NCBI RefSeq assembly: GCF_000765475.1
Contig: NZ_JRHO01000014.1
Coordinates: 61,574-93,573 of the forward strand
From: Methanococcoides methylutens
GTDB taxonomy: Archaea; Halobacteriota; Methanosarcinia; Methanosarcinales; Methanosarcinaceae
Direction of reading: 5' to 3'
DNA length: 32,000 nucleotides
Shown here: positions 14,330-18,651 of the stretch, piece after piece
How the letters are laid out: every line of letters begins with the position of its first letter
Position numbering within the stretch: position 1 is the stretch's first letter
Notes under the pieces: generated by a model
The model's input: only the letters and a program-made list of their open reading frames with translations
Databases searched by the model: none
What the model was told of the DNA's origin: nothing
Made by a program: the position numbers and the translations under genes

Positions 14330-14340
14330 AATTAATTACT

Positions 14341-14379
14341 CGTATGCGGTTGTCGCATACGGGCTTCTTTTTTCTTTTG
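14341..14379 (+). terminator. Hairpin plus T-tract terminator downstream of argG
   Basis: An 8-bp perfect stem (CGTATGCG at 14341-14348 pairing with CGCATACG at 14354-14361, loop GTTGT) is followed by GGCTTCTTTTTTCTTTTG. Oligo-T tracts are the known archaeal termination signal. Confidence 0.55.
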
Positions 14380-14742
14380 TTGGTCTTGATTTGGATTGTT
14401 CTAAATTTATTACCCGGCTACTCATACTGTTTAAACGCATATTTTAAAACATACCCCAATTCTTAGGGTATGTTGCACTGCACTAACCCAAAAAAGTTAG
14501 AATCACTTCCCCCGCACAATCTTGCGGGGATATAGGTAAGTTGAATTTTTTGTACGAGATTGTGTGAATTGTTTGCACAACCTGTCTGTAAACATCTAAG
14601 AGAATCTAGCTATACTATTTTGGATGCTAATCAATTACAAATAAAAATATTATATATTATTATGTTATTACTGGTAATGTAAACTCTAATAACAAATTAT
14701 TTTTCTCGTTAAAATTTTGTGGTTATATTTGAAGGTAATATT

Positions 14743-15708
14743 ATGAACAAAATTGACATAGTTCCAGCTTGCAAAGGGATAATAACTAATTTAGACTTAT
14801 TAAAATCAGAAGGTACACTTCAATTTACTACGAGTCTTAGTGACTTAAAAGCTGGAGGAATCATTTTTGAAGTAAGTGGACCAGAGTTCAGCTTCATATT
14901 TGGTTCAAACGAAAAAGGACTTTTTGTAAAAAGAAACGAAGTTTTTTCAATATTGACTTATGATGATATAAAAGAAACCTCAGTAGAACCAATGATTTTT
15001 CTGACTTGGTCCTACAATAAAATTTCATTATATTTTTGTAGTGAAATTAAACATAAAAAAGCAGAAGCTCCAACAAAACCCTGTTCTCCTCCTCCATCAT
15101 TAATTAAATGGGCACGTAAACAAAATTTACTCCCAATGGTTGAATATGAAAGTGAGGAAAAATTACGCGAAAAAGTATATTCATGTTTGTTATCAATACA
15201 AGACAAAATTGATGAATATGGTGCAATAAATCCTTTTTGGGACATTAGTTATTCTGGTAAGAGTATTGTTAGCAGAACACCTAAAAAAGAAACAGATGTT
15301 CAACCTGTAATCAGCCTTTTGCTGTCGGATCAAATGCTAATGGCTGGAATAGAAGTTATACCTGAATATCAAACGGGCAGAGGTAATTTGGATTTTATGT
15401 TTATGGGGAATGTAAAAGACAATGGTATAACTAAAATATGTGCAGAATTTAAAAATGCTCATTCAAAAGATTTGTTTCATGGGCTTGAAAATCAACTTCC
15501 CCTCTATATGAAAAATCGTGAATGCAATTATGGGGCATATTGTGTCTTAAACTATAAAGGGGAATGGTTTACTAAACCTGACACATTTGAAAATAAATTG
15601 GATGTGGAACTCTCTATTCATCAAAGCAAATCTATCAATCCATTAGTCCATAACGGTATAAGGTGCTTTATATTTTCATTATCAAAAAAGAAAACTGCTA
15701 GTAAGTGA
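14743..15708 (+). CDS. Hypothetical protein with a C-terminal RecB/Cas4-like PD-(D/E)XK nuclease motif set and an unrecognised N-terminal domain
   Basis: It is the only long ORF in the AT-rich island. Motifs occur in canonical order: GNLDFMF (Asp, nt 15391-15393), ICAEFK (ExK, nt 15445-15453) and ENQLPLYM (QxxxY, nt 15493-15507). The N-terminal ~110 aa looks beta-rich and is followed by a Pro-rich linker (APTKPCSPPPS). I prefer the ATG at 14743 over the GTG at 14719. Confidence 0.55.
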   Translation: MNKIDIVPACKGIITNLDLLKSEGTLQFTTSLSDLKAGGIIFEVSGPEFSFIFGSNEKGLFVKRNEVFSILTYDDIKETSVEPMIFLTWSYNKISLYFCSEIKHKKAEAPTKPCSPPPSLIKWARKQNLLPMVEYESEEKLREKVYSCLLSIQDKIDEYGAINPFWDISYSGKSIVSRTPKKETDVQPVISLLLSDQMLMAGIEVIPEYQTGRGNLDFMFMGNVKDNGITKICAEFKNAHSKDLFHGLENQLPLYMKNRECNYGAYCVLNYKGEWFTKPDTFENKLDVELSIHQSKSINPLVHNGIRCFIFSLSKKKTASK

Positions 15709-15819
15709 AATTATTATATAACATCCGAAACTATTTTGTAACCTAGACAAACTATTATACCCATATATGTTTTAATCCTTTTAGCAATAGGAATAGATAG
15801 GCGATAATTTTTGCATAAA

Positions 15820-16149
15820 TTAAGAAACGTCTATCTTTTTCCCCCATCCATCTAATCTCTCCCTAACATGAGCATTGAGAGTAAACGTGTTCTCACTTCT
15901 GACATTTTGCTTCATATAATGCAACGTACCTTTTGAGAAACCCATCTTCTTCCATTCAGTGTAGGATATATCAATGATCTTCTTCCTCAAATCATCCGAA
16001 TCATACCTTTCAATCTTATAGGAGGGCTTAACAAACTCAATCGTTTTCCTCTTCCTAACAAGATGATGACTCAACTCTCTCGCCTTAACCAACAGGATAG
16101 ATCCCCAGGAACTATTCTTTTCCCTGTACTCAACCTTCCCGTTAACCAC
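15820..16149 (-). CDS. Hypothetical small protein, possibly a 5'-truncated gene remnant, with a putative C-terminal DNA-binding-like segment
   Basis: The ORF starts at GTG. The frame stays open 23 more codons upstream (IIFDKNVSSIKTRFAQYYVYEDD) to a TGA ending near 16221, with no in-frame ATG. The C-terminal ISYTEWKKMGFSKGTLHYMKQNV...LNAHVRERL looks helix-turn-helix-like, which is my inference only. AT-rich composition, convergent with the nuclease ORF. Confidence 0.35.
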   Translation of the reverse strand: MVNGKVEYREKNSSWGSILLVKARELSHHLVRKRKTIEFVKPSYKIERYDSDDLRKKIIDISYTEWKKMGFSKGTLHYMKQNVRSENTFTLNAHVRERLDGWGKKIDVS

Positions 16150-16285
16150 ATCATCTTCATAAACATAATACTGAGCAAACCTTGTTTTGATACTCGATAC
16201 ATTTTTATCGAATATTATTCAATGAGTATATTGTAAAATTTGCAAATAGTGCAAGTTAAAACAACTTAAATGGGAGAAAATAATA

Positions 16286-17517: not shown

Positions 17518-18651
17518 ATGAAAACTAAACAAAACTTGCTTATTTGTTTCGGAATGTCCTTGATATTACTAATAATGTCTGCAGGAACTGCTGTAGCTCC
17601 GACAGTTACTTGTACAGATGTTGGGATAGGCGATCTCGTATGGGAAGACCTCGACGGGGATGGCATAAAGAATGCAGGCGAGCCAGGTATTGCTGGTGTG
17701 ACCGTTAAACTTTACGAGTGTGGAGCTACTAATCCTATTGCAACCACAACAACTGATGCAAATGGAATGTACCTGTTCACAGGTCTTGCACCTGGTGACT
17801 ACTATGTTGAGTTTGTTGCTCCGGTTGGATACATCTTCACACCACCGGATCAGGGTGCTGACGATGCAATGGACAGTGATGCAGATCCAACCACAGGAAA
17901 GACTGTATGCACCAACCTTGAGTCAGGTGAGACCGATCTTACGTGGGATGCAGGAATGTTGGGTACAACTGGCATTGGTGATCTCGTATGGGAAGACCTC
18001 GACAGAGATGGCATAAAGGATACAGGCGAACCAGGTATTGCTAGTGTGACCGTTGAACTTTATGAGTGTGGAGGTAATGCTCCTATTGCAACCACAACAA
18101 CGAGTTCTACTGGAATGTACCTGTTCACAGGTCTTGCACCAAGTGACTACCATGTTGAGTTTGTGGCTCCAGCTGGATACATCTTCACACCACAGGATCA
18201 GGGTGCTGACGATGCAATGGACAGTGATGCAGATCCAACCACAGGAAAGACTGTATGCACCAACCTTGGGTCAGGTGAGACCGATCTTACGTGGGATGCA
18301 GGATTTTATATGATAGTTACTAAAATCAATATTGATATCAAACCAGGTTCATTCCCAAATTCCATTAATCCAAATAGCAAAGGTGTTATTCCAGTTGCAA
18401 TATTGAGTACAGACGTTTTTGATGCAACAATGGTAGATCCTGTGACCGTGGTATTTGGTCCGAATGATGTATCACCACTAAGGTGGGCAACTGAAGATGT
18501 CGATAAAGATGGAGATCTGGATCTGGTATTTCACTTTAGAACTCAGGAAACTGGAGTAGAAGCAGGGGATACAGAGGCAACTCTGACAGGTGAAACTTTT
18601 GATGGCACAAACATCGAAGGCACTGATTCAGTAAAAATTGTTCCTTCATAA
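17518..18651 (+). CDS. Secreted or cell-surface protein with two SdrD B-like (Ca-binding, Ig-like) repeats and a C-terminal beta-rich domain
   Basis: N-terminal signal-like segment (LLICFGMSLILLIMSAGTAVA). Two copies of IGDLVWEDLDxDGIKxxGEPGIAxVTVxLYEC...TTTTxxxGMYLFTGLAPxDYxVEFVAPxGYIFTPxDQGADDAMDSDADPTTGKT, which is typical of SdrD B-like repeats. No C-terminal membrane anchor. Confidence 0.7.
   Translation: MKTKQNLLICFGMSLILLIMSAGTAVAPTVTCTDVGIGDLVWEDLDGDGIKNAGEPGIAGVTVKLYECGATNPIATTTTDANGMYLFTGLAPGDYYVEFVAPVGYIFTPPDQGADDAMDSDADPTTGKTVCTNLESGETDLTWDAGMLGTTGIGDLVWEDLDRDGIKDTGEPGIASVTVELYECGGNAPIATTTTSSTGMYLFTGLAPSDYHVEFVAPAGYIFTPQDQGADDAMDSDADPTTGKTVCTNLGSGETDLTWDAGFYMIVTKINIDIKPGSFPNSINPNSKGVIPVAILSTDVFDATMVDPVTVVFGPNDVSPLRWATEDVDKDGDLDLVFHFRTQETGVEAGDTEATLTGETFDGTNIEGTDSVKIVPS
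17623..18303 (+). repeat. Tandem in-frame duplication: two 333-nt units (17623-17955 and 17971-18303) separated by a 15-nt linker
   Basis: My hand alignment, codon by codon, gives 30 mismatches in 333 nt (~91% identity). The last 129 nt of each unit differ at only 2 positions (CCG/CAG and GAG/GGG). The off-frame track ORFs 17720..18016 and 18053..18313 mirror the duplication. Confidence 0.9.

Follow-up and report, generated by a model that had tools for sequence, protein, structure and literature searches.

LI82_08025 of Methanococcoides methylutens, an imported DUF8371 gene, encodes a predicted PD-(D/E)XK nuclease and a plausible single-gene defence candidate

The methanogen Methanococcoides methylutens carries, within a 32,000-nt stretch of contig NZ_JRHO01000014.1 (positions 61,574 to 93,573; hereafter the window, in whose numbering all positions are given), a gene of foreign composition, LI82_08025, whose product belongs to the family DUF8371 (Pfam PF28130). 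From its conserved motifs and a structural model we predict with high confidence that the protein is a RecB-type PD-(D/E)XK nuclease whose active site is intact. Judged from its sequence, LI82_08025 is a plausible candidate for a single-gene defence nuclease. We give even chances to the fuller reading, in which it is a stand-alone, horizontally acquired, metal-dependent endonuclease that acts against foreign DNA and uses an N-terminal β-sandwich as its recognition or control domain. An earlier note made from the DNA letters had described an orphan RecB/Cas4-like nuclease behind a variable N-terminal sensor, and had suggested a Shedu-like defence system or a mobile-element nuclease.

The coding sequence occupies positions 14743..15708 (+) and specifies 321 amino acids (aa) and a stop codon. 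The open reading frame (ORF) extends on this strand from a GTG at 14719 to 15708. We favour the ATG at 14743 over the GTG because a Shine-Dalgarno-like GAAGGT (14731..14736, +) lies 6 nt upstream of it and the alignment of all homologues begins at that methionine; the product is therefore 321 aa long. Residues are numbered from this ATG, so that D225 and K245 of the earlier note become D217 and K237. The product is identical to KGK97718.1/WP_048194732.1 of M. methylutens, annotated as a hypothetical protein, and assembly GCA_900773915.1 carries the same stretch. Membership in DUF8371 was assigned from precomputed Pfam hits and full-length alignment, and the window protein aligns with the family over its full length. 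LI82_08025 is a real gene that was recently imported into M. methylutens.

The nuclease core comprises residues 183-321 (15289..15705, +), as delimited by an AlphaFold2 model, Foldseek and conservation. The model, built on an alignment of 32 sequences, has a predicted local distance difference test score (pLDDT) of 90.5 and a predicted template modelling score of 0.85; the C-terminal 210 residues modelled alone give a pLDDT of 89.2. Core elements follow the order αβββαβ (α1 183-199, β1 204-210, β2 215-224, β3 228-238, α2 244-258 and β4 263-270; pLDDT ~90). The motifs GNLDFMF, ICAEFK and QLPLY, to which the earlier note had drawn attention, are present as described and are kept in 189-191 of 194 family members. 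D217, the predicted metal-binding aspartate (codon 15391..15393, +; kept in 189/194), stands at the start of β2, E235 and K237 of the ExK motif (E235-F-K237, 15445..15453, +; each kept in 191/194) lie on β3, and Q251 and Y255 of the QxxxY motif (Q251-L-P-L-Y255, 15493..15507, +; each kept in 190/194) are on α2. A further glutamate, E208 (189/194), is located on β1, and H240 is kept equally often. E208, D217, E235, K237, Q251 and Y255 are each found in at least 97% of the 194 members. Judging from the strand limits of the model, the hairpin register suggests that D217 should pair with position 235. Conservation and the confident model thus bear out the RecB-type motif set (GxxD, ExK and QxxxY) that had been read from the letters.

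The earlier note read the N-terminal ~185 aa as a β-rich module with a Pro-rich linker and a helical stretch, and the AlphaFold2 model agrees with this layout. Residues 1-110 (14743..15072, +) are modelled as a jelly-roll β-sandwich of the LamG/LNS-like type, with strands spanning residues 3-110, and Foldseek aligns it with neurexin LNS, SHBG and laminin-G domains (probability 0.98-0.99 over ~100-119 columns). At the sequence level the N-terminal part has no match in Pfam, PADLOC, NCBIfam or the PDB, and in that sense it is as unrecognised as it had seemed. It is followed by a Pro-rich linker, or adaptor, at residues 111-182 (15073..15288, +; delimited by the model and conservation), which consists of a helix at 118-126 (WARKQNLL), a long helix at 138-158 and a β-hairpin at 166-180 ending in the invariant P180-K181 of a conserved P180-K181-x-E183 string. 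For this family the notion of a variable sensor has to be given up: conservation extends over the full 320 aa, the N-terminal domain included, where R64 (190/194), N65 and W89 hardly vary.

A link to antiphage proteins comes from the C-terminal part. The single significant NCBIfam match of the window protein is to the 'NACHT domain-containing antiphage protein EruA' (NF058535; E 8.6e-8). Residues 101-269 align with positions 1109-1270 of the 1318 in the EruA profile, and the aligned region covers the linker helix, the long helix, the hairpin and the core through β4. Among 57 diverse members of DUF8371, mutually less than 45% identical in the C-terminal region, 26 match EruA (best E 1.7e-11) and four match HyoA (NF058534). 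By this similarity, adaptor and core are homologous to the module at the C-terminus of EruA and HyoA, two bacterial NACHT antiphage proteins; what this module does in them is assumed here. The window protein is not itself an EruA or HyoA of full length. Unlike them it has no NACHT nucleoside triphosphatase, it measures 321 aa against ~1300, it scores 30.8 bits against an EruA family cutoff of 1000, and it has the β-sandwich in place of the NACHT and sensor region. The alignment of residues 101-269 with the C-terminal ends of the EruA/HyoA models lends indirect support to the defence idea. Residues 136-271 also match positions 313-436 of the 478 in phrog_30194, a phage family with no assigned function (E 7.6e-7), so that phage proteins carry the nuclease module too, in an overall architecture that differs from that of DUF8371. 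A protein search with a diverse profile for fusions such as NACHT returned the DUF8371 family alone among the matches listed. Sensor swapping is seen only above the family level: DUF8371 has the β-sandwich, EruA/HyoA have NACHT, and the long forms described below add a domain of 185 aa.

The gene is foreign to its surroundings. Its GC content is 0.318, and 0.22 at third codon positions (GC3), whereas the 21 other long ORFs of the window have a mean GC of 0.450 (standard deviation (sd) 0.030, minimum 0.397); the target thus lies more than 4 sd under the host genes. It sits in a variable low-GC region (14330..16285, no strand assigned; delimited by composition and by comparison with a relative's contig) flanked by argG and the gene of a 2x[4Fe-4S] ferredoxin (fdx). 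Among the contigs found, that of the closest relative, whose ArgG is 87% identical, has an argG-fdx gap of only ~660 nt, which contains neither the target nor its small neighbour. The description of the locus as a foreign islet is upheld by these GC values. Searches around the islet found no terminal inverted or direct repeats bounding it, no tRNA and no Rfam family that would define an element, and exact ferredoxin matches, sought for strains with or without the islet, came from the same genome only.

The claim that the gene is encoded alone holds in part. No methyltransferase, helicase or ATPase gene adjoins it among the ORFs of the window, and no neighbour is conserved among its homologues (see below), but the islet also holds a 109-aa ORF, LI82_08030 (15820..16149, -; assigned by family comparison). 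The family of LI82_08030 consists of proteins of 85-190 aa that are labelled Cas1, confined to Methanosarcinales and present in multiple copies per genome. Its longer relatives carry PF01867 and keep ...GFLHE...AYDLQEPFRF... followed by the C-terminal tail ...YTEWKKxGFSKGTLHYMKQN.... Casposases have a C-terminal helix-turn-helix. On these comparisons, we read LI82_08030 as a decayed remnant, from the C-terminal end, of a Cas1/casposase-type gene. Its GC3 of 0.50 is host-like, in contrast to 0.22 in the target, and for this reason the two probably arrived separately. Copies of the fragment are scattered through Methanosarcinales without DUF8371, and no relative of LI82_08030 was found beside DUF8371 genes at 19 other genome loci. 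A partnership between the fragment and the target is improbable; the fragment marks the gap as an earlier landing place of foreign DNA. Three such Cas1 fragments lie within 4 kb in a second M. methylutens genome region (L113).

DUF8371 is a widespread family with a patchy distribution. A search of 5.8 billion proteins returned 75 homologues, all of full length and all, with the exception of the short fragment P0075, with a precomputed PF28130 hit. When 1.84 billion cluster representatives were searched with a profile, 974 matched at E ≤ 1e-3 and 260 at E ≤ 1e-30. Identity over the full length is 35-58% across phyla. Members were seen in Patescibacteria, Planctomycetota, Bacteroidota (Flavobacteriia), Gammaproteobacteria, Cyanobacteria (including a Nostoc plasmid), Acidobacteriota, Micavibrio, a Bathyarchaeota metagenome-assembled genome (MAG) and Methanococcoides, the last two being the only archaeal occurrences seen against a scatter over many bacterial phyla. 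Beyond its own 90%-identity cluster, the closest relatives of the window protein are 51-58% identical, and the few with a named source are bacterial, for example Patescibacteria. The reading as a foreign single-gene nuclease draws on this patchy distribution together with the GC deficit of over 4 sd relative to the host genes and the lack of the gene in the argG-fdx gap of the relative.

The family has two architectures. Most members are ~325 aa long, and a minority of 490-530 aa has an extra N-terminal domain of ~185 aa. These long forms make up roughly one in ten representatives (P0005, P0007, P0009, P0012, P0106, P0125 and others; also L018:9443-10990), and their extra domain carries the motifs RFGL and CALxFxID..Y..W and has no Pfam match. 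The Bathyarchaeota copy has an N-terminal extension of similar length. A second nuclease domain was considered for the extension, following BLAST hints (E ~0.007), but the alignment has no conserved D/ExK pattern there. Two copies look broken: that of Anabaena catenula FACHB-362 (L009:9962-10963) has an in-frame stop after residue 92, and that of a Micavibrio MAG (L011:9715-10720) is split across two frames. Both are likely pseudogenes or assembly errors, and they fit a dispensable accessory gene.

Genomic neighbourhoods vary widely. In an all-against-all comparison of ORFs from the 19 genome loci and the window, no neighbour family was conserved beside DUF8371; the gene works alone or with host factors. 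At some loci mobile-element or defence genes are close by, and at many others the surroundings are housekeeping. One locus has a tyrosine integrase, Fic and a DDE transposase as neighbours, another has an IS110 transposase ~6 kb away, and the Nostoc plasmid copy lies near genes for an integrase, a Gp157-like protein and YpsA. Of 120 neighbour proteins, a few match the PADLOC models mREase_II (restriction-modification), MzaE and DzbA, and one matches Pfam AIPR. In a Flavobacteria MAG, a gene for a 1249-aa Type IIG restriction-modification enzyme (DUF7149, DUF7814, Eco57I, TaqI_C; L005:6092-9838) ends ~150 nt 5' of the DUF8371 gene. On the 460-kb JGI contig Ga0604671_0000014 (L024:7376-8984), the DUF8371 gene is divergent to a small PLDc_2 nuclease gene, and both DUF4145 and an Imm_superinfect gene are close by; Pfam matches are nearly absent from this region, which could be a variable island or part of a very large phage. 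A tblastn search of INPHARED phages and PLSDB plasmids gave no match. Among 2.9 million IMG/VR contigs a single DUF8371 locus was found (L115:7995-8996; IMGVR_UViG_3300048833_000740), and translations inspected by eye suggest that this copy is flanked by phage structural and lysis-type ORFs, in a moron-like position.

Comparison with known nucleases and defence systems leaves the protein in DUF8371 and among the predicted PD-(D/E)XK nucleases, outside Shedu, Cas4, NucS, HamA and EruA. Like Shedu (SduA, DUF4263), it is a lone single protein with a non-catalytic N-terminal region and a C-terminal PD-(D/E)XK domain, but its N-terminal domain is conserved rather than variable, and neither a DUF4263/SduA Pfam match at E ≤ 10 nor a PADLOC match was found for Shedu with the window protein or the 57 members. 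It shares with RecB/Cas4-type enzymes a QxxxY motif on the helix that follows the ExK strand (Q251 and Y255 on helix 244-258). Cas4 is defined by four conserved cysteines for an iron-sulfur cluster; here C267 alone is partly conserved (139/194), and there is no Cas4 or PDDEXK_1 match at E ≤ 10. Membership in Shedu or in Cas4 thus finds no support in these tests. Apart from DUF8371 itself, the only Pfam match is a weak one to PDDEXK_9 (PF08011), with which, as with RecB-type nucleases, DUF8371 shares GxxD, ExK and QxxxY on an αβββαβ core, though without helicase or AAA partner domains. The window protein matches PDDEXK_9 below threshold (E 0.0047), as do 14 of the 57 diverse members, and the best score is 22.1 bits against a Pfam gathering threshold of 25.5.

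Structural comparison gave weak matches as well. The C-domain has a weak Foldseek match to BamHI (probability 0.96, template modelling (TM) score 0.45), and further matches are to CinB, XPF, Mus81, Cap4, PaqCI, HamA, EndoMS and PspGI. Foldseek searches of the full model against the PDB and BFVD gave weak, domain-wise matches and nothing closer, and PDB sequence searches with the window protein and then with the family profile had no meaningful match. LI82_08025 has no close characterised nuclease relative, and no solved structure is close to it. HamA membership failed the tests run. A classical Type II restriction-modification system or Hachiman can be set aside, as had been concluded before, since no methyltransferase or HamB helicase adjoins the gene, whose neighbours are argG and the Cas1 fragment.

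In the proposed defence role, LI82_08025 would be a single-gene effector against invading DNA, whether of a virus, a plasmid or another mobile element. The β-sandwich would take the place held by the NACHT sensor in EruA/HyoA, and might either recognise the target or hold the nuclease back from host DNA until it is triggered. A bolder extension, which we hold tentatively and think rather less probable than its negation, is that DUF8371 constitutes an unrecognised family of single-protein immune nucleases of bacteria and archaea, a minimal counterpart of EruA/HyoA in which a jelly-roll, instead of a STAND ATPase, would sense the invader and license a RecB-type nuclease. On that view, Methanococcoides would recently have received a functional defence gene from another domain.

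Several observations weigh against a defence role. None of the PADLOC models (2023) matches the window protein or the 57 diverse members. The EruA link hangs on the name of an NCBIfam model, and the literature searched for DUF8371, EruA and HyoA contained nothing relevant. The fold of the β-sandwich is uninformative on its ligand, and Foldseek matches no solved nuclease more than weakly (E >0.01, TM ≤0.45). Many loci are plain housekeeping neighbourhoods instead of defence islands; one copy, for example, follows recQ in a Bacteroidota contig and another lies between lysA and an M16 peptidase gene. The defence-type matches among the 120 neighbours stem from few proteins, and are raw counts.

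A solitary restriction endonuclease, most probably a modification-dependent (Type IV-like) one, is an alternative that we consider unlikely but take seriously. Here cleavage by the PD-(D/E)XK domain would follow recognition of a DNA feature or a modified base by the β-sandwich. This would be a sub-case of defence with another control logic, constitutive and modification-targeted, and it explains the missing methyltransferase; for a nuclease without partners it is also the most straightforward means of avoiding damage to the host. The solitary state without a conserved methyltransferase, the order of an N-terminal binding domain and a C-terminal PD-(D/E)XK domain, BamHI as the best structural match of the C-domain, the copy directly after a Type IIG gene and the sporadic, horizontally transferred distribution all agree with it. 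However, a LamG/LNS-like jelly roll is, to our knowledge, not among the known readers of modified DNA (SRA, EVE, YTH and winged helix), no PADLOC model of Type IV or methyl-directed restriction matches, and the conservation over the full length is unusually high for a restriction enzyme. Somewhat more doubtful still is a nuclease in the service of a mobile element, either as cargo of the decayed casposon-like neighbour or as a free-standing homing-type endonuclease that spreads into intergenic sites. The adjoining Cas1/casposase remnant, single-gene insertions between unrelated housekeeping genes in many lineages, integrase, DDE or IS110 transposase genes near other copies and the one copy amid structural genes of a phage contig point this way. 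The islet, however, is without terminal repeats or tRNA, the Cas1 fragment differs from the target in GC3 and occurs across Methanosarcinales without it, and the family is nearly absent from viral and plasmid sets (one IMG/VR locus, none in INPHARED or PLSDB).

We regard as very improbable a housekeeping nuclease of DNA repair or recombination analogous to NucS/EndoMS. EndoMS/NucS is the top Foldseek match over the full length (E 1e-3), with the same domain order (a β-rich N-domain and then a RecB-like nuclease with QxxxY) and the same motif set, and some DUF8371 copies adjoin RecQ or AddA-like genes. The superposition, in contrast, is very weak, with a TM score of 0.15-0.27 (0.15-0.20 at a root-mean-square deviation of ~19-20 Å), there is no Pfam NucS match or other sequence match, and DUF8371 has an extra 70-residue adaptor. 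NucS/EndoMS is a core gene, whereas LI82_08025 is accessory and foreign in composition, is missing in the nearest relative and belongs to a family with a patchy phyletic pattern and some broken copies. The reading we prefer is a stand-alone nuclease directed against foreign DNA.

Two further features of the window were noted. The 413-nt low-GC spacer 5' of the target contains two tight hairpins, at 14448-14474 and 14510-14530 (AACATACCC..GGGTATGTT and CCCCGCA..TGCGGGG, respectively); its folding beats that of shuffled sequence (z = -3.1), and the hairpin region has no Rfam match. Positions 17518-18651 encode a secreted-looking protein of 377 aa with two near-identical SdrD_B-type repeats of ~130 aa, visible as an internal duplication in the translation, and it resembles an ordinary surface protein.

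The existence of the family is not new, as Pfam already lists DUF8371 among its domains of unknown function; the literature searched contained no paper on DUF8371 or PF28130. New here are the predicted function, the module that NACHT antiphage proteins also carry and the acquisition by a methanogen of a gene from another domain. The case is a solid and testable one that should not surprise a specialist. If DUF8371 does defend its hosts against viruses or plasmids, it would be a compact, 320-aa one-gene system of bacteria and archaea that the 2023 PADLOC models missed, and the nuclease module of large NACHT immune proteins would be able to run with a very different and much smaller front end. 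Should it instead prove to be merely an orphan restriction or mobile-element nuclease, the DUF family would still have gained a functional prediction with its catalytic residues. In archaea few defence systems have been tested beyond CRISPR and restriction-modification, and the Methanococcoides copy offers a concrete candidate.

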